Below, piece by piece: positions 11,402-54,284 of a stretch of 64,000 nucleotides of DNA. The number at the start of each line of letters is the position of its first letter. The stretch's first letter is position 1. Source of the stretch: Gammaproteobacteria bacterium (GTDB lineage: Bacteria; Pseudomonadota; Gammaproteobacteria; CAJXQU01); NCBI GenBank assembly GCA_965238175.1, contig CBDEGZ010000003.1, positions 1,344,001-1,408,000 of the forward strand. The letters are read 5' to 3'. The notes under the pieces are model-generated. The model saw nothing but the letters and a program-made list of their open reading frames with translations. It did not search any database and was not told where the DNA came from. The position numbers and the translations under genes are program-made.

Positions 11402-12793
11402 ATGTCGAAGCAAACTTCAAAAAAAACAAATGAATTAATCTCTCCACTTTCCGGACTTAGACGTCTTATTGAAACTAATCAAATTGAAGCACCTAGCGAC
11501 GACTTTCTTAACGATAAGTCTGCAGTCTGGTCTCCGCATAATAAGATCATAAACGTTACACCTGGTCCCGCCTTTGGGTCTGAATTGGTTAATCAATTTG
11601 CATCTACCCAAACAAGAGGTATGCGGGGTCCAGGCGCAGCGGGTTTTTTTACAGCAGTTCGCCAAGAATACGGAAAATTAGTAGATATGCCAAAAGGAGG
11701 AATGCCCCTTTTCTTCACCGGCTCTGGGACATCTGCTACCGAGGCTGCTGCAGGCTCTTTGCGTACTCCGGATGAAATGAATTCCGACAAGAAAGTCATC
11801 TTAACTCTGGAGATCGGCAGCTTCAGTACGGCAATGGGCCATTGCGTTGAAAACCTGGGTAGGGGTGTGATTCGCCTAAAAGGTGAAGTTGGTGAAGATC
11901 TGCCGTTTGGTCAGTGCAGAGAAGTCTTAGAAAAAGACATTGAAGGTAACATCAAGATGGTTATGGCTCCGCATAACGAAACGGGCACGGGAGTTACTGC
12001 TAGCATTCAGAAATTACGTGACTTGCTGGATGAACTAAAACATCCTGCACTTCTTGTAATCGACGGCATTTCTTCTATCGCCAGTATGCCATGCTCTATG
12101 GCTAAAATGGGAATCGATATGCTGATTGGATGTAGCCAAAAGGGTTTGATGGCTACGCCAGGTATCGGAATGATTACGCTCAGCCCAAAAGCGGTGCAGA
12201 AAATTCGTGAGTCTGATCAACAGATGAAAGAAGGGGGGCTTAAAAAAGGCGAACACTACCTTAATCTTGCCAAGATGATTGAGGCTATGGAAACCGCTGG
12301 CCTACACTTAGAAACGCCACCAAATTACGCCCAATTAGCCGTGGCTTTGGATACGCTCGCTATCGAGGGCATTGATCGAGTTTGCGAGCGCCATAGAGAT
12401 TGTTCTGAAATCTTCCGTGCCGCCGTACAGGCTGCGGGCTTTGAGCTGGTCGTAAAAGATATCAATACGGCATCTAATGCGGTGACTGCAATCAAAGCAC
12501 CAGAAGGTTATGGAGAGAAAGAAATCCAAGAAGTTCTATGGATAATGTACAACAAGCACGCCGTAGAAGCTGCCGCTATTCCAGGCTATCCAGATCTGGG
12601 CTGGCGTCTTTGCGCTACAGGCGGTATCCAGCCTCAACATGCACTCATGGCTTCAATAGCCTTCTTGAAGTCGGTTGAAGAAGCTGGAATACCGGTTGAT
12701 TATGATAAGGGATTGGTTGCTGCGTCTAAGGTGTATGGAGAGGTTCTCAGGTATCATCGCCCTCTCCCTGGACTTGATATGTACGGAAGATAA
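11402..12793 (+). CDS. PLP-dependent class V aminotransferase (alanine/serine-glyoxylate aminotransferase-like)
   Basis: TPGP, GSGTSATEA, HNETGTG, DGISS and SQKGL (PLP lysine) motifs. Confidence 0.9.
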   Translation: MSKQTSKKTNELISPLSGLRRLIETNQIEAPSDDFLNDKSAVWSPHNKIINVTPGPAFGSELVNQFASTQTRGMRGPGAAGFFTAVRQEYGKLVDMPKGGMPLFFTGSGTSATEAAAGSLRTPDEMNSDKKVILTLEIGSFSTAMGHCVENLGRGVIRLKGEVGEDLPFGQCREVLEKDIEGNIKMVMAPHNETGTGVTASIQKLRDLLDELKHPALLVIDGISSIASMPCSMAKMGIDMLIGCSQKGLMATPGIGMITLSPKAVQKIRESDQQMKEGGLKKGEHYLNLAKMIEAMETAGLHLETPPNYAQLAVALDTLAIEGIDRVCERHRDCSEIFRAAVQAAGFELVVKDINTASNAVTAIKAPEGYGEKEIQEVLWIMYNKHAVEAAAIPGYPDLGWRLCATGGIQPQHALMASIAFLKSVEEAGIPVDYDKGLVAASKVYGEVLRYHRPLPGLDMYGR

Positions 12794-12814
12794 GTCTGTC
12801 AAAATATGAAGAAA

Positions 12815-12862
12815 CTGAAGGAAGGGCACTATTACATTAACTAAAGAAAGTCCTTCCTTCAG
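12815..12862. terminator. Stem-loop after the aminotransferase
   Basis: CTGAAGGAAGG / CCTTCCTTCAG 11-bp inverted repeat; no clear U-tract. Confidence 0.35.
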
Positions 12863-13058
12863 CGGCATAATAGTTGGGGTCATTTTGACGCCAATTAATT
12901 TTATAGTTATGCCAGACAATTATTAAATCAAGAACTGCCTATTTTTGCAGATACCACACAAAATCAGTACAAAATTATTAGCGATGATAAAATCAAAATT
13001 CAACTTGAGTAGTCGTTTATTTCCCTGCTTTGATGAAAACTCTATTTAAAGAGATTGA

Positions 13059-13559
13059 TTGAGAAAAATGGCAAAAATGACTTACCCTTGTCCTTGCGCC
13101 AGTGGTAAACTTTATCCTGACTGTTGTGAACTGATGCATAGGGGGAAAATTGACTCACCCAATGCAGAACAAACCATGCGTGCACGTTATACTGCATTTT
13201 GTTATGGTGAAATTGGCTATTTAGTGGATACCACGCATCCCAGAAAACGGCGTATTGGAGATTCATTTTCATTATCCAAACTGATCAAAAAGATCCGTTG
13301 GGTGGGCCTTAAAATTATCGAGTATCAATCTGGGAGTGAAGTCTCTTACGTCGACTTTGTCGCTTTCCGTATTGAACAGGGTCAGTTTGCACAACAACAC
13401 GAGCGTTCAAAATTTGTCTTCGTCAAAGATGAATGGTTTTATTTCGAAGGTGAAGAATTACCCTCAATAAAACTACAACGTAATGAACTTTGTTTTTGTG
13501 GCAGTGGTAAGAAATTTAAAAAATGCCATGGAACTTTGCCTGGTAAGTTGCGGCATTAA
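13059..13559 (+). CDS. ychJ: YchJ/UPF0225 family SEC-C motif protein
   Basis: CPCASGK..CC, MRARYTAF, YLVDTTHP, HERSKF and a C-terminal SEC-C motif; true start probably ATG 13068 or 13077. Confidence 0.85.
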   Translation: MRKMAKMTYPCPCASGKLYPDCCELMHRGKIDSPNAEQTMRARYTAFCYGEIGYLVDTTHPRKRRIGDSFSLSKLIKKIRWVGLKIIEYQSGSEVSYVDFVAFRIEQGQFAQQHERSKFVFVKDEWFYFEGEELPSIKLQRNELCFCGSGKKFKKCHGTLPGKLRH

Positions 13560-13736
13560 ATGGGCAGACTCGATTTGATTTATCAGTAACACCAGCAATT
13601 AAATAGTCAATATGATACTTGACCACTTTATTATTCAATCCTCCCAATCCCTCTTAGTCCTTTAAGAAAATTATAGGGCTTGCTGAGTGACTAACATCAA
13701 TCACTATAGTGATTTACCAATTGCACGATAATAAAA

Positions 13737-14579
13737 CTAATCCCCTGGCATACAACAATGCTTGTAACGCTTTTTACTCCCACAGGGGCAAGCGGCTTTT
13801 TTCCGCGGTTTAATATCATTCGCAATATTCATCACATCCTGTTGATAAATTTTTGATAGCGAAGAGAATAATTGTGGATGCTTATTTTTTAGCATTTTCG
13901 GGCGTTCAAAAAAATATTCAGAAGCAACCGCAAAAAATTCCACTCTATTCGTTGTCGCATAATCCCTTATATTGCTTTTGTTATTATTTATCGCTTTGAT
14001 TTTTTGTTCGACTAACTCAAACCACGGGATAGAAAATGCATATTCTTTTAACCGTTCGGGATAACCATCACATTCGCCATCGGCCATATCGACCAAATGT
14101 ACAAATTCATGAATACCAACATTTTGTTTATCTTTACTATTTTCAAATCCTTGATGAAGTGCTGGTCTACATAGTGCCAGTTTTCCAGCCATTGGCCCTG
14201 TTCCCACCATGCCTGTGATATTAGAATCTGGCTGGCCACATTCGAAATTTGTATTAAAACTGGCAGGTAATAAATAGACTGCATTGAGGTTAAAGTAATG
14301 CCATTTGGAAAAACCCCAAACTGGAATAACTGCACTTGCTGCTACCAAAAGACGGTCTTCATCAGACACTGTGAATTGCCCCACTTCAATTTCTGTTGTC
14401 TGCAAAAATAGTGACACACGTTGTTCAAAAAGTAGCTTGTGTTCTTCACTCAATACGCGATAAAAGGTCACTTTCTCTATCAGAAACCTGGACCATTGTT
14501 GTCGCCATTGAAGTTCTTTGTGTTGTTTTTCTAACCCAAGAAATTTTTGTAGAACTTCTTTGATCCAATTAATCATCAT
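13737..14579 (-). CDS. MtfA-like zinc-dependent peptidase (M90) with C-terminal SEC-C motif
   Basis: NVGIHEFVHLVD, YATTNRVEFFAVASEYFFERP and CPCGSKKRYKHCC. Confidence 0.85.
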   Translation of the reverse strand: MMINWIKEVLQKFLGLEKQHKELQWRQQWSRFLIEKVTFYRVLSEEHKLLFEQRVSLFLQTTEIEVGQFTVSDEDRLLVAASAVIPVWGFSKWHYFNLNAVYLLPASFNTNFECGQPDSNITGMVGTGPMAGKLALCRPALHQGFENSKDKQNVGIHEFVHLVDMADGECDGYPERLKEYAFSIPWFELVEQKIKAINNNKSNIRDYATTNRVEFFAVASEYFFERPKMLKNKHPQLFSSLSKIYQQDVMNIANDIKPRKKAACPCGSKKRYKHCCMPGD

Positions 14580-14753
14580 TTAATCTCGTAAATTCTCAAA
14601 AAAATATAACAGCTCTTGTTTTATCACTTCGGATTTTAGTAAATGTTATTGTTAAAGTTTTCACAAGTGAAGAGATAAATCAGGTCAGATTGAACCTGCT
14701 ACATTTTAACGGATACATTAAATAGGCGACAATATGCCTTTAGGAGTATCCAA

Positions 14754-15065
14754 ATGACCAGCAACAGAAAACCATACAAAACCTATACCCGAGAATTCAA
14801 ACTAGAAGCGTTACGCTTGATGGAGCAATCAGATAAACCGTCATCTGAGATTGCCGCTGAACTTGGTATACGGCGTAATCAGCTCTATAAATGGAAAGAA
14901 CAACTGACCGACAAAGGTGATACTGCATTCCCAGAACAACGTGGAAGGCCTAAGAAAGAAGCACAAAGTGAACTCACCACCTTACGCCAAGATAATGCAC
15001 GGCTGAAGGAGGAAGTTGAGATATTAAAAAAGGCCGCGGTGTACTTTGCAGGCGAACTCAAGTGA
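14754..15065 (+). CDS. IS3 transposase OrfA
   Basis: Protein identical to 5184..5495. Confidence 0.95.
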   Translation: MTSNRKPYKTYTREFKLEALRLMEQSDKPSSEIAAELGIRRNQLYKWKEQLTDKGDTAFPEQRGRPKKEAQSELTTLRQDNARLKEEVEILKKAAVYFAGELK

Positions 15066-15922
15066 AGTACGCCTTTATTAAAATACAACGTCGCCATCAC
15101 TCTGTGTCGTTATTATGTCGCACCCTGACTGTCTCAGTCAGTGGTTATTATGATTGGTTAGACAGGCCTCAAAGTAAGACACACTCAACGAATCAACGGT
15201 TACTGACGAAAATAAGATGTTTTCATCAAGCTAGTTTTAAGCGTTATGGTTCACCTCGGATACATCGAGACCTACTCGATTCAGGTGAAAAAGTAAGTCG
15301 ACCGCGTGTTGCACGTTTGATGAAGACTGCTGGCATTCAATCGAAGATGGCCAAACGGTTTGTGATTACAACCAATTCAAAAAATACCACAGCACCTGCA
15401 CCCGATAGGCTCAAACGTGAATTTCGTGTCAATGAAACAAATAAAGCCTGGGTAGCTGACACGACCTTTATTCGTACTCGGCAAGGTTGGTTATATTTGG
15501 CTACCATGATGGACTTGTATTCACGGCAAATTATTGGCTGGGCGATGTCTGAGCGTAATGACACCAAGCTAGTCACTGATGCGTTAACGATGTCGCTGTC
15601 ACGCAGAGACAAGGCAAAAGATGTGATTGTCCATTCCGACCAAGGCAGCACTTATGCCTCGGGTGATTATCGAAAGCTCATTAAAGATAATGGCTTCCTT
15701 TGTAGTATGAGCCGAAAAGGTGAATGCCATGATAATGCGGTCGCTGAAAGTTTCTTCGGCAGCCTCAAAACAGAGTTGGTTGATGATGAGGATTATCGAA
15801 CACGTAGCGATGCCAAACAAAGCCTATTTCACTATATTGAAGTGTTTTATAATCGAAGACGGAGGCATTCTTATTTAGGCTATGTTAGCCCTGTAGAATT
15901 TGAGCGGGCAAATGCCCCTTAG
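15062..15922 (+). CDS. IS3 transposase OrfB
   Basis: Protein identical to 4327..5187. Confidence 0.95.
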   Translation: MKYAFIKIQRRHHSVSLLCRTLTVSVSGYYDWLDRPQSKTHSTNQRLLTKIRCFHQASFKRYGSPRIHRDLLDSGEKVSRPRVARLMKTAGIQSKMAKRFVITTNSKNTTAPAPDRLKREFRVNETNKAWVADTTFIRTRQGWLYLATMMDLYSRQIIGWAMSERNDTKLVTDALTMSLSRRDKAKDVIVHSDQGSTYASGDYRKLIKDNGFLCSMSRKGECHDNAVAESFFGSLKTELVDDEDYRTRSDAKQSLFHYIEVFYNRRRRHSYLGYVSPVEFERANAP

Positions 15923-16284
15923 TTATTTGCTCCGTTAAAGTGTTGCAACCTCAGATCATTTTAATATACTCTCTCTACGTTTACCCTTAATAAATTAACA
16001 AATAGTATGTTTAAGAATTACCATGACTCTTATTAAATGTTTCTAATGTTGTCGAAGAATATCCAGTAATGAGTTTAGCAATAGAGGGCGATACTGAATT
16101 TGATCAAGACCATTTTACTTTTTTAAGAACAATAAAAAGCAACCAACTGATTACCATGGATGGAAATGGTAAAAGATTAAAATAGACACTTTAGTTAACC
16201 CAACAATATGAAACATACATTTCAAGTAGAGCAATTTATTTAAAACCAGATATTTTGATGATTTAGAAAAATCAAAATCCGCAG

Positions 16285-16650
16285 ATGAAACCGAAGAACA
16301 ATGTTCGATATGCTATTCTGAATTGATAGTAATTAGTTGTGTGCCCTGTCATGATTGTGGCAATTTTGAACATGAGATTGGACACTTTAAAGAAGGGCTG
16401 CATATTTATAGTTTACAAGGGGCTAGAATTACAGTTATGTAATTTTTTTGCCGTTGATTTTGGTTCATATTGTCCAGAAGCGTTTGGTTTTAATGATCGT
16501 ACTCAAATAGATTATTCTGATCTTGAGGTAGTTAAATTGATTGAGAAACCATTGTTGGAGAAAGATAAATTTTGTCCGCAATGCAAGAGATGGCTGAAGT
16601 GGTTAAGTTTTATAGCAAAAATCGAAGAATTGAAGAAAGAAATTACTTAA
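16285..16650 (+). pseudogene. Frameshifted paralog of the Cys-rich ORF 3028..3411
   Basis: ATGAAACCGAAGAAC start and YKGLELQLCNF...EKDKFCPQCKR tail match; small deletions break the frame; about 70 bp of upstream DNA is also shared. Confidence 0.85.
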
Positions 16651-16679
16651 TGTTTGGGCGAAATTAGAGTAAAGCATTT

Positions 16680-16753
16680 AGGGTCAGGTCTAGCTATGAA
16701 TGCACTTTCGAAAAGACTAATATGCTAGATGATTGATAGTTAGACCTGACCCT
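16680..16753. repeat. 13-bp perfect inverted repeat pair (GGGTCAG/CTGACCC type)
   Basis: AGGGTCAGGTCTA (16680-16692) and TAGACCTGACCCT (16741-16753). Confidence 0.75.
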
Positions 16754-16777
16754 TAGTTTTAAAGTTAATTATAAATA

Positions 16778-17371
16778 TTACCTATAATGAGATCCTCCAA
16801 CCCACAATACAAAAGAACGACGAACACCTTTAGTTACTTTTGTTACTCTATGCAGCATATATGAAGGGAAAATAAAGACTGCGCCTTTTGCTTTATTCGC
16901 TGTTATGAAACTATTATCTTCATAATTTCCTCCTGTGAATAATTGTAAATCTCCCCCTTCATATTCACTGGGGTCAGATAATTGAACCGTGATAGAGATT
17001 TTTCGATGTGAAACGCCTTGACCCATATCTTGATGCCAGTGGTAATGACCTTTGTCTGTAGCGTCATATTCTGTATATTGTATTTGATCTTGGATGTGAA
17101 ATAAGTCAAAGTTCCAAAGCTCATCGTTGGCAGTAACAGCCATATCGGATAATTTTTCATATAACCAATACCAGCTATCCTCTTGAGGGATCCATTTAAC
17201 TTTTGAAGAACGAAAATCATCTCCCGCCCCCATAGCTATACCTTTTTGAGCTTCTAAAGATTGAACTCTGGTATGAATTTCATTTAATTCTTCTTTATTA
17301 AAACCTTCTTCATACAAGTAATGATTCTGGGAATCATTTTCCTTTTGGTTAAAGTTTAAACTATTAAACAT
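16778..17371 (-). CDS. 2OG-Fe(II) oxygenase (P4Hc/PKHD-type hydroxylase-like)
   Basis: YHWHQD (HxD), RKISITVQLSDPSEYEGGDL, FPSYMLHRVTKVTKGVRRSFV. Confidence 0.9.
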   Translation of the reverse strand: MFNSLNFNQKENDSQNHYLYEEGFNKEELNEIHTRVQSLEAQKGIAMGAGDDFRSSKVKWIPQEDSWYWLYEKLSDMAVTANDELWNFDLFHIQDQIQYTEYDATDKGHYHWHQDMGQGVSHRKISITVQLSDPSEYEGGDLQLFTGGNYEDNSFITANKAKGAVFIFPSYMLHRVTKVTKGVRRSFVLWVGGSHYR

Positions 17372-52499: not shown

Positions 52500-53507
52500 T
52501 CAATCTATAAACAATCCAAATGCTCGACTACCTTCTCGGGTTTCAATCGTATTCACAATGTCTAAAGTAGTAATATCGATCACACTGACGGTTCCATCGC
52601 CCCAGTTAGCGACATAGATAAATCTGCCGTCTTTGGTGATATCAATTCCTTCCGGTGTTCCACCAACCTCGATAGTTGAGATTATTTCACCGGATTCAAG
52701 ATCGATTACCCCGACACTATCTTCATCTTGATTGGTGACAAAAAGCTGTTTTCCATCCAGAGTGACTACCGCACAATAAGGCCATTCACCAACGTCTAGT
52801 GTTCGTGAAATCTCTAAGCTTTCAGTATTAATCACAGTGACATTGTTGCTACGAACATTAATGGCATAGATCTCATCGGTGGCAGGGTTTTGAGCTAGAC
52901 CGAAGGGCGCATCTCCGGTTGGAAGTTCGCTGATTACTTTATTGTTATTGAGATCAATAATCGAAACCGTATCGCTATCTCGGTTAGCGACATAGAGATG
53001 ATTTTTTTCTTTATTGACCAACAATCCAGCAGGAGACTCACCGACTTTAATTTGATCAATAATTTTTTGATTAGAAGTATCAATCACTGAGACCTGATGT
53101 TCATACCAGTCAGCGACATAAATTTTTGTTCCATTTTTATTGCTGGCAATTCCAACCGGCCCTGTACCAACGGGGATCGTATTGATTAACTTCAATGTTT
53201 GCTTATCGATAATGCTGATATCTGTGCTTTCAGCATTCGTTATGAATATTTTTTCATCGCTAATTGCAATGCCTGCAGGACGGTGACCGACTTTGATCGT
53301 TGCAATAGTCGACTGTGTATTAGTGTCGATGACACTGATACTGTCATCAAGTTGGTTGGTAATGTAGGCGTGATGAGACTGCTTGGCTTGTGATTGAGGC
53401 TGCTCGCAGCCTGTTAAAAAAACACACAGTAAAAAGCAGGTAGGTATAAAAAAACCGAGGCACCCAAAATGTTTCGTGTTTGGCTTAAAGAATAATGTTT
53501 TGATCAG
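52500..53507 (-). CDS. YVTN beta-propeller lipoprotein (MxaE-like)
   Basis: About seven YITN/YVAN...VSVID...I.VG..P.G repeats; lipobox LTGC; start uncertain (CTG near 53507 assumed). Confidence 0.8.
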   Translation of the reverse strand: MIKTLFFKPNTKHFGCLGFFIPTCFLLCVFLTGCEQPQSQAKQSHHAYITNQLDDSISVIDTNTQSTIATIKVGHRPAGIAISDEKIFITNAESTDISIIDKQTLKLINTIPVGTGPVGIASNKNGTKIYVADWYEHQVSVIDTSNQKIIDQIKVGESPAGLLVNKEKNHLYVANRDSDTVSIIDLNNNKVISELPTGDAPFGLAQNPATDEIYAINVRSNNVTVINTESLEISRTLDVGEWPYCAVVTLDGKQLFVTNQDEDSVGVIDLESGEIISTIEVGGTPEGIDITKDGRFIYVANWGDGTVSVIDITTLDIVNTIETREGSRAFGLFID

Positions 53508-53526
53508 TACATTATAACTATAAAGA

Positions 53527-53624
53527 TGGTAAGAAAGGACAGGATTCGAACCCGTGCTTTGCCTAAACAAAGGAGCGCTCCCTTTCGGGCGACGCCCACC
53601 TTCAGCCACTCAGTCACCTTTCTT
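53527..53624 (-). ncRNA. tRNA-like RNA lacking an anticodon loop (8/5 fold, long variable arm, encoded CCA)
   Basis: AAGAAAGG/CCTTTCTT acceptor plus ACCA; D-loop GAGTGGCTGAA; ACGGG-TTCGAAT-CCTGT T arm; CTTTGT-TTAG-GCAAAG variable arm; CCC-GAAA-GGG where the anticodon loop should be. Confidence 0.85.
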
Positions 53625-53684
53625 ATTTTCAAATGTGGATAACATGTTTCCAATATAAATAATAAGTTAACTCGAAACGCTTAT

Positions 53685-54284
53685 CTAGCAGCCACCTTCT
53701 TCACAGATTTTTTTCAAATTCTGCAAGCCTATTTTATAGATTGCTGTAATCGTTGCAACACCGTCTTCATCACCCAGGCCTTCTGGGTATCTTGGCTCAG
53801 TTTTGTCATAGTTCAATTGGTAGACACGATAAAATTTGCCAGACCAGGTAACTTCAGTACCACCATCAACTTCTTTCACGGTGATAGTCGCAAGATAATT
53901 GTGAACAGGAACTGTTGGAACGTCGTGTTTTGTACCTTTGTACTCAACCGTTTTGACCGTGCTCATTTCGACGATTTTATACTTCATCATCATTTTTTCA
54001 TTGTCGAGTTTTTTCAGATCTTCAGTAATGGTTGGACCGCCTTCTTCACTGATAGTTAGAACACGTTTTTTGTCACCTTCCATTTTTGTAGAAACAACCA
54101 CAGGATGCCAATTGTGTAGACCTGCGAAATCACCCGCCATCGCCCAGACTTTTTCGATAGGCGCATTGATAATGATTTTTTCTACAACTTTTTGTCGTGA
54201 AGGACCATGGGCAGAAGCCATCATTGGAATGGCCATCATGGCCGCTAGTGCAAAACTTAAGATCTTTTTCATTATTAACTCCAA
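53685..54284 (-). CDS. mxaD: Periplasmic SRPBCC protein, MxaD-like
   Basis: Signal peptide then HGPSRQKVVEKIIINAPIEKVW...WHP, VTWSGKFYR, IYKIGL. Confidence 0.75.
   Translation of the reverse strand: MELIMKKILSFALAAMMAIPMMASAHGPSRQKVVEKIIINAPIEKVWAMAGDFAGLHNWHPVVVSTKMEGDKKRVLTISEEGGPTITEDLKKLDNEKMMMKYKIVEMSTVKTVEYKGTKHDVPTVPVHNYLATITVKEVDGGTEVTWSGKFYRVYQLNYDKTEPRYPEGLGDEDGVATITAIYKIGLQNLKKICEEGGC

Follow-up and report, generated by a model that had tools for sequence, protein, structure and literature searches.

A 98-nt element on the minus strand of the window, a 64,000-nt stretch of a gammaproteobacterial genome (G000:C3:1344001-1408000), is by sequence comparison a member of a small and rare family of non-decoding RNAs derived from tRNA-Ser. 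The element, located at window positions 53527-53624 and identical letter for letter to the minus-strand sequence given in the original prediction, would form a class-II (serine-type) cloverleaf in which a helix capped by GAAA stands in place of the 7-nt anticodon loop. Five homologues were recovered by pattern scans and a covariance model, giving six members in all, and every helix has been kept through compensatory substitutions since the anticodon was lost. The proposal that this locus is a selected tRNA mimic rather than a decaying pseudo-tRNA is thus upheld, since homologues occur in other genera, the hairpin is kept, and the helices are compensated.

The window element is a single-copy sequence in the 3.35-Mb genome G000. 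Its acceptor stem comprises 8 bp (AAGAAAGG/CCTTTCTT), and the D stem (ACT/GGT) includes one G.U pair and closes an 11-nt loop that contains GG. The next 5-bp stem, GGCGT/GCGCT, includes two G.U pairs and encloses the 13 nt CG-CCC-GAAA-GGG-A. One G.U pair is also found in the stem of the variable arm (CTTTGT/GCAAAG), and another in the T arm (ACGGG-TTCGAAT-CCTGT), which is followed by A-CCA. The earlier statement that every stem is fully paired therefore holds once G.U pairs, present in four helices, are counted, and fails on Watson–Crick pairs alone. The D loop is nearly identical to that of the genome's own tRNA-Ser(GGA), with 83% identity over 30 nt.

Standard tRNA finders pass over the element: ARAGORN reports no tRNA across the whole window, and Rfam at gathering thresholds returns no match for the element. 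At a relaxed threshold, the tRNA model RF00005 reaches 16.7 bits (cut-off 29), and only the acceptor and T arm contribute to that score. Moreover, folding of the single sequence is no better than chance (z = -0.47; 57 of 200 shuffles fold equally well or better). Taken alone, the window sequence makes a weak case, and its standing beyond chance comes from the five homologues and their covariation.

Homologues and conservation of structure

The homologues comprise one member in a Reinekea sp. metagenome-assembled genome (locus L085, genome G061), one on a high-GC metagenome contig (L087), and L101, L120, and L121 from three genomes of one other genus (G143, G257, and G261). Scanning one genome per species for the D loop and then a nearby CCC-GNRA-GGG hairpin returned four stretches, one of which is a true homologue (L085), and scanning metagenomes for the hairpin and then the T arm also returned four, again with one true homologue (L087). 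The covariance model R1, built from the window element, L085, and L087, scores these founding sequences at 110-114 bits and all members at 86.5-113.9 bits, and real tRNA-Ser genes in the searched genomes at 77 bits or less, so that members are separable from ordinary tRNAs. A search of 100 relatives of the Reinekea genome with R1 added one new member, in G143 (86.5 bits), and a search of the close relatives of G143 added those of G261 (98.6 bits) and G257 (92.7 bits), whereby 3 of 61 genomes, G143 included, carry a member. The same model found none in 150 other genomes sampled from the class of G000, in 150 others from its phylum, or in 149 others in the order of G143; in these large searches, as in that of the G143 relatives, only 27-67 candidates were scored per genome. 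Three pattern scans of viral contigs returned no family member. The genome and metagenome pattern scans demanded the CCC/GGG hairpin core, and the genome scan the D loop as well, so that variants of the L101/L121 type escape them. Therefore, six members are a lower bound for a family that is real but rare.

Annotation programs recover the homologues unevenly. ARAGORN calls L101 only, as "tRNA-???" with a four-base anticodon, and the Rfam tRNA model (cut-off 29) gives 34.7 bits for L101 and 33.5 bits for L085 and does not list L120 or L121. The only Rfam match of L087 is tRNA-Sec RF01852, at 28.1 bits against a cut-off of 47, and no other member matches that model. Among the Rfam 15 families beyond tRNA and tRNA-Sec, no member finds a match at E <= 1 and the window element finds none at E <= 10. 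No published description was found in the main literature searched, supplements and one table lying outside that coverage.

The conservation of the fold is seen in the way its pairs have changed. In a plain MAFFT alignment of three sequences (A1), 13 of 30 pairs are changed on both sides and 97.8% of cells pair, compared with 40-57% in slid controls, in which the partners are shifted by 1-3 columns. With all six sequences (alignment A3, fitted to the model's own structure, although the plain A1 gives the same picture), 16 of 30 pairs are changed on both sides and 98.3% of cells pair, against 43-56% in slid controls. None of 500 shuffles of the six sequences reaches any of five measures, a significance that the kinship of the sequences inflates. 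RNAalifold on its own predicts the same cloverleaf, with the addition of an invariant G26-C44 pair. Among the individual helices, both sides are changed in four of the eight acceptor pairs and in four of the six pairs of the variable-arm stem, and two of the three D-stem pairs covary. The 8/5 acceptor/T geometry, a 13-bp helix, is found in five of the six members. Four members have the same D loop, from which L087 and L120 each depart by one substitution, and the long variable arm is present in all six with a loop that is not conserved (TTAG, GAAG, GTTT, GACA, and others). Thus, the canonical cloverleaf and elbow (G18G19, T loop) are retained, with 30-31 pairs and conserved D and T loops.

The part of the molecule that would decode has been replaced. 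A canonical 7-nt anticodon loop with U33 and a purine at 37 is absent, and the segment closed by the 5-bp stem measures 13 nt in the window, 12 nt in L101, and 16 nt in L121. Covariation of the CCC-GAAA-GGG hairpin, which the original prediction had put forward as a check, is borne out: all three pairs of the inner helix covary, this helix being CCC/GGG in four members, GCC/GGU in L101, and GCUU/AAGC in L121, and GAAA is invariant in all six. Since all six share the capped helix in place of the anticodon loop, their common ancestor had already lost the anticodon. Among the window element, L085, L087, and L120, the arm is 87-100% identical and the rest 62-90%, and in the comparison of the window element with the high-GC L087, the values are 96% and 62%. 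As the best-conserved segment in these four members, the arm therefore points to sequence-specific recognition. A reading of the variable arm as a displaced anticodon arm (5-bp stem, 7-nt loop with U-UAG-G) was rejected, because this loop is not conserved and has 4 nt in the homologues.

The scans also brought up another conserved stretch of ~100 nt in soil-type metagenome and viral contigs (L088:480-521, L089/L092:11978-12019, L090:1127-1168, and L091:4195-4236). It contains a CCC-GAAA-GGG hairpin followed ~20 nt later by the T-arm-like motif GGTTCGAATCC, receives no ARAGORN call, and may be another tRNA-like element.

Relation to serine tRNAs and other tRNA-like RNAs

Bacterial tRNA-Ser shares with the family the 3-bp D stem and 11-nt D loop, the long variable arm, G15-C48, C11-G24, and the TTCGAAT T loop. 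However, the family differs from it in lacking the 7-nt loop and anticodon, in having an 8-bp acceptor stem in five of six members, in a discriminator that is never G, and in a CCA that is not always encoded. Moreover, tRNA-Ser is universal in bacteria, whereas the family is accessory and sporadic. The comparison with tRNA-Sec (RF01852), drawn in the original prediction, stands as regards the 8/5 geometry, to which the long variable arm and a possible 6-bp anticodon stem (G26-C44) can be added. It fails in the D arm, which is serine-type (3 bp and an 11-nt loop, against the 6-bp stem and 4-nt loop of tRNA-Sec), in the lack of the UCA anticodon, and in the host genomes, as SelA (PF03841) was found in 0 of 5 by a search whose control hits E. 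coli and M. jannaschii. Like the tRNA-like domain of tmRNA, the family would be an anticodon-less tRNA mimic processed as a tRNA; unlike it, the family has a full D arm and variable arm, and tmRNA combines its domain with a long helix and a coding part and is charged with alanine via G3.U70. An ordinary tmRNA is present elsewhere in G000. YrlA and other Y-RNA-like RNAs, mascRNA, and the tRNA-Other of Bacillus cereus are small RNAs, non-decoding or regulatory, in which the tRNA elbow has been put to use for contact with tRNA-binding proteins. To our knowledge, none has been described with a serine-type variable arm together with a GAAA-capped arm. Finally, allo-tRNAs (PMC5389517; review PMC7609411) are likewise serine-type cloverleaves of non-canonical form, discovered by genome mining, whose acceptor stems are lengthened. 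According to Mukai et al. (PMC5389517), their 12-bp acceptor branch is split 8/4 or 9/3 and the anticodon is present; in contrast, the family has an 8/5, 13-bp branch and a capped helix in place of the anticodon loop, and occurs in different phyla.

An obvious question is whether the host needs the element for decoding. ARAGORN and Rfam call only tRNA-Ser(GGA) and tRNA-Ser(GCU) in G000, while its six congeners each have an uninterrupted 91-nt tRNA-Ser(UGA). A direct pattern for tRNA-Ser(UGA) matched only at non-tRNA sites. The exons of the gene lie, nevertheless, on the plus strand at C3:1899771-1899805 and C3:1900033-1900088 (locus L073), separated after U34 by 227 nt ending in G, an insert recognised as a group I intron by the Rfam model RF00028 (64.5 bits, cut-off 50). 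This split gene is missed by both ARAGORN and the Rfam tRNA model. In the Williams preprint, 21 types of tRNA are counted as bearing introns. The idea that the element is the missing tRNA-Ser(UGA) was accordingly rejected: once the intron-split gene is counted, the set of serine decoders is complete, and therefore the element needs another explanation. Elsewhere in the genome, two adjacent odd tRNA genes without encoded CCA occupy C3:427287-427429 (plus strand; Rfam tRNA 48.4 and 57.9 bits), one of which ARAGORN calls as a 75-nt "tRNA-Leu(caa)" without a long variable arm.

Genomic settings of the element

Judged by its distribution, the gene is accessory: it is scattered among unrelated genomes of marine-type bacteria, lies in variable or island-rich DNA, and behaves as a horizontally moving gene. 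For the window element (Table 1), a BLAST search of the 98 nt against 60 relatives, including the six congeners, gave no full-length match, only pieces of 15-30 nt of real tRNA-Ser D arms or T arms. The unpublished genome G045 is one of these 60 relatives and enters no other result. The gene upstream of the element, which encodes an SRPBCC protein, is matched by an orthologue in each of the six congeners. Five congener loci are long enough to be read (the sixth, L037, is cut at a contig end), and in these the gene for a beta-propeller lipoprotein follows the SRPBCC gene almost directly, without any tRNA-like sequence between them. The window thus carries an insert of ~170 nt, roughly 53515-53684, made up of 60 nt of upstream flank, the 98-nt element, and ~12 nt downstream, and here the element came in alone, without an island. 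The original prediction had looked to orthologous loci and to conserved homologues as tests: the six congener loci carry no tRNA of any kind, yet conserved homologues exist elsewhere.

Table 1. Coordinates of the element, its parts, and its surroundings in the window.
Feature	Position	Strand	Basis or remark
tRNA-Ser-like, anticodon-less RNA gene, 98 nt	53527..53624	-	sequence; covariance model R1, 109.9 bits; covariation
Acceptor stem, 5' strand, 8 nt, pairing with 53531-53538	53617..53624	-	pairs 1-8 with 87-94
D arm: 3-bp stem, 11-nt loop with G18G19	53598..53614	-	
Extended "anticodon" arm: G26, 5-bp stem, CG/A internal loop, CCC/GGG helix, GAAA cap	53574..53597	-	GAAA at 53583-53586
Long variable arm: 6-bp stem, 4-nt loop	53557..53572	-	
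T arm: 5-bp stem, TTCGAAT loop	53539..53555	-	loop invariant in 6/6 members
Acceptor 3' strand (53531-53538), A discriminator (53530), CCA (53527-53529)	53527..53538	-	
60-nt upstream flank that arrived with the element	53625..53684	-	absent from the congener intergenic region
Short downstream flank of the insert	53515..53526	-	homology with the closest congener resumes at ~53514 (by eye)
SRPBCC (Polyketide_cyc2) secreted protein, formerly labelled mxaD-like	53685..54272	-	PF10604, E = 2.3e-26; no NCBIfam match
YVTN beta-propeller lipoprotein, usual start displaced	52500..53507	-	TIGR02276, PF21783; TIGR03866 below cut-off

The insertion has probably affected the downstream gene. The propeller gene of the congeners begins with ATG or TTG, at most ~30 nt from the upstream stop codon. 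The window has no ATG, GTG, or TTG from a GTG within the element (53609) up to the signal peptide, and only CTG (53507) or ATC (53504) is available there, so that the usual start of the gene was probably displaced. The labels mxaD-like and mxaE-like, under which the flanking genes were first described, are loosely based on fold family, SRPBCC being that of MxaD and the second protein having YVTN repeats; no NCBIfam name applies to the upstream protein and no other mxa genes flank the locus. A role in a methanol-oxidation or mxaD transcript finds no support, as no synteny is common to the six loci and the element is a lineage-specific insert. Two further observations concern this genome and its congeners. 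In congener loci L032-L036, the first codons of the propeller gene contain a GC-rich hairpin with a T run behind it, which is terminator-like but coding; its counterpart at 53456-53510 of the window (minus strand) has decayed, in a propeller gene without an ordinary start codon. Moreover, the 10,967-nt contig C1 of G000 has 55.8% G+C, against 40.4% in the main contig, and a tRNA-Leu(GAG) unlike the chromosomal copy, and is possibly foreign DNA or contamination.

The other members have different neighbours. In G261, a tRNA-Pro gene precedes the element by ~1 kb, and downstream of the element lie genes for DUF2310, a GmrSD-like nuclease, a transposase, a complete Lamassu system, and an integrase. 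Its counterpart in G143 is followed by genes for KilA-N/Bro/ANT proteins, a resolvase, a PAAR protein, and an integrase, and in both genomes the integrases are 11-12 kb downstream of the element. In the Reinekea genome (L085), a hipBA-like pair stands on one side and genes for NUDIX and phosphopantetheinyl transferase proteins on the other, while L101 and L121 are flanked by genes on the opposite strand. The Lamassu system (LmuA, LmuC, and LmuB, with very strong PADLOC matches), at ~12243-17125 of locus L123 (G261:C17:42000-61999), is beside a tyrosine integrase and shares one variable region with the element and a tRNA-Pro(CGG).

Attempts to delimit or trace these islands gave negative results. 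No direct repeats of the element of at least 14 nt occur within the 9-20 kb fetched around four loci, and no repeats of at least 12 nt of the nearby tRNA genes were found in L123 (tRNA-Pro) or L124 (tRNA-Phe, tRNA-Leu). Definable island borders were therefore rejected, no flanking direct repeats having been found. A phage or plasmid origin was set aside as well, since blastn of 261 nt against phage and plasmid collections yielded only chance matches of 25-32 nt. A shared partner gene was also sought and rejected: the neighbourhoods hold none, DUF2310 occurs in one of five hosts, there is no extra PF00587 paralogue, and SelA is missing from all five. Two side observations concern mobile sequences in the same genomes. 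A repeat of ~126 nt (L122:19432-19558 in G143, with many further sites in G257-G261) is present in that genus in dozens of copies at 82-99% identity and resembles a miniature mobile or REP-like element. In G000, a lone 3'-end fragment of a tRNA (T arm, acceptor strand, and CCA) at C3:1779510-1779527 (minus strand) lies between integrase genes at ~C3:1768633 and C3:1781273, near a tRNA-Arg at C3:1781869, and resembles the distal border of an island that integrated at a tRNA.

Possible roles of the RNA

The role favoured here, at a little better than an even chance, is that of a tRNA mimic in which the arm, and not an anticodon, gives specificity, so that the RNA would be a decoy, competitor, or adaptor for a tRNA-binding factor. 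The RNA would be transcribed from its own upstream flank or by read-through. Bacterial RNase P prefers U at position -1, and the two positions upstream of the acceptor stem, -2 and -1, are occupied by A and T in every one of the six members, the conserved T being consistent with that preference. RNase P may thus cut after the conserved U(-1), and the 3' end would be trimmed or tailed with CCA as in a tRNA. The mature RNA would fold into an L shape, its tRNA body would bring it to a tRNA-binding partner, and the GAAA-tipped arm would make the specific contact, the outcome being the action of a decoy, competitor, or adaptor rather than that of a decoder. Because no neighbouring gene is common to the six loci, the partner is probably a core factor of the host or a factor of an invading element.

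Several points weigh against this interpretation. The decoy or adaptor mechanism is read from the anatomy alone, and the sample is small, six sequences from about four or five independent loci, as L101 and L121 are orthologues. To this must be added the kinship and the model-fitted alignment mentioned above, and L087, which pairs six of eight acceptor positions with the outer two broken. Furthermore, the orthologues L101 and L121 are only 42% identical in the arm and 93% in the rest, and a sister species, G258, has lost 122 nt between two CCTTT repeats, so that the last 12 nt of the element remain as a true relic at the orthologous site. Constraint could therefore be weak or gone in the L101/L121 lineage, where either the arm is under remodelling or the gene is drifting towards loss. 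As regards promoters, the promoter-like TAGATA-17-TATTAT at 53687-53659 is not significant (five sites against 2.7 expected), and a scan with the promoter consensus found none on the right strand upstream of L085, L101, L120, and L121. A candidate promoter picked out by eye in L101/L121 was rejected for its overly short spacer. Nor do the genomes point to a partner, as no gene is common to the six neighbourhoods, the candidate DUF2310 is present in only one of five hosts, and class-II synthetases show no additional paralogue in the five hosts, each of which has 3-4 PF00587 genes, the number that ThrRS, SerRS, ProRS, and one further enzyme would account for.

A more specific, tentative proposal is that these are horizontally mobile mimics that work in the conflicts of bacteria with mobile elements or phages. 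They might, for example, be decoys or inhibitors of a nuclease or modifier that targets tRNA, or supply the RNA subunit or the sensor for an unrecognised defence or counter-defence function. Such a role would explain why the gene resides in defence-rich islands, why its presence is patchy, and why the arm has been rapidly remodelled in one lineage, although this role is considered unlikely.

Somewhat less probable still is an aminoacylated carrier, matured with CCA and charged independently of the anticodon by SerRS, or by LeuRS in members with A73, that would donate its amino acid to a non-ribosomal acceptor or scaffold tRNA-dependent chemistry. According to a review of tRNA identity (PMC9976931), the variable arm, and not the anticodon, is the main determinant of serine identity; bacterial tRNA-Ser conserves G1-C72 and G2-C71; and in the 8/5-shaped tRNA-Sec, G73 is the strongest serylation element. 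The serine-type body with its invariant elbow suits a carrier, and so do G2-C71 in all six members and A3-U70 in five when the acceptor is numbered with 7 bp. An A-CCA is exactly placed after the 8-bp stem in the window and in L101/L121, two independent lineages. However, the discriminator reads A, A, A, C, U, and A across the six members, and is thus never G; pair 1 in the 8-bp numbering is A-U, G-C, or unpaired; and no more than three of the six encode CCA, L120 reading C-CAA (or CCA with a 7-bp stem) and L085 and L087 having none. In addition, the five hosts have no dedicated synthetase paralogue, no transferase is common to the neighbourhoods, and a carrier gives no reason for the conservation of the GAAA arm at sequence level. 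Charging of the RNA is thus possible, but its sequence is not in favour of it, and the serine-carrier role put forward in the original prediction is weakened by the variable discriminator and the uneven presence of CCA.

Slightly further down the scale of plausibility, the element would be a functionless relic, a tRNA-Ser pseudogene lineage spreading passively with islands, for example as the carrier of an attachment site, with an inherited tRNA look. Its sporadic distribution, the island-like surroundings with integrases in G143 and G261, the deletion in G258, and the fast divergence of the arm in L101/L121 fit this description. Nevertheless, the 16 pairs changed on both sides since the loss of the anticodon, with nearly all cells still pairing, speak against it, and selection on an attachment site in DNA would not keep the pairing of the acceptor, D, and variable arms. 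The marks of an attachment-site relic, namely uncompensated stem mutations, truncation, and direct repeats, are absent from the element, no long element repeats were found near the four loci, and the insertion in the window took place without any island.

It is highly improbable that the element is a cis-acting signal of the SRPBCC-propeller transcript, such as a processing site for RNase P or RNase Z or a 3'-end stabiliser between cistrons. It does lie on the same strand as both genes, 60 nt past the upstream stop and with no terminator-like site between them, and the two genes are nearly contiguous in the congeners. Against this, the other five members have unrelated contexts, with opposite-strand neighbours at L101 and L121, six congeners manage without the element, and the insert seems to have removed the normal start of the downstream gene. 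Least credible of all is a decoding tRNA of unusual form, with an expanded 13-nt anticodon loop (quadruplet or other) or a mini-intron removed post-transcriptionally: the four-base anticodon call on L101 and the Rfam tRNA scores of L101 and L085 above the cut-off are in its favour, but the segment is a covarying helix with an invariant GAAA in loops of 12, 13, and 16 nt without a conserved U33 or purine-37 frame, its bulges form no bulge-helix-bulge, bacteria are not known to splice such introns, and the serine decoders are already complete with the intron-split tRNA-Ser(UGA).

Genes of this kind are missing from annotations, ARAGORN being blind to them and Rfam only marginal. Non-decoding tRNA-shaped RNAs, such as the tRNA-like domain of tmRNA, Y-RNA-like RNAs, and viral tRNA-like structures, have in each case brought a new use of this fold to light. 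In the family described here, a complete class-II body has been kept by selection after a conserved capped helix replaced the anticodon, and the gene, short enough to be inserted by itself, seems to travel between distant bacteria. Provided that the RNA is expressed, it would be a simple example in which to study the benefit that a tRNA unable to read codons brings to a cell or a mobile element, as well as a handle on its partner.

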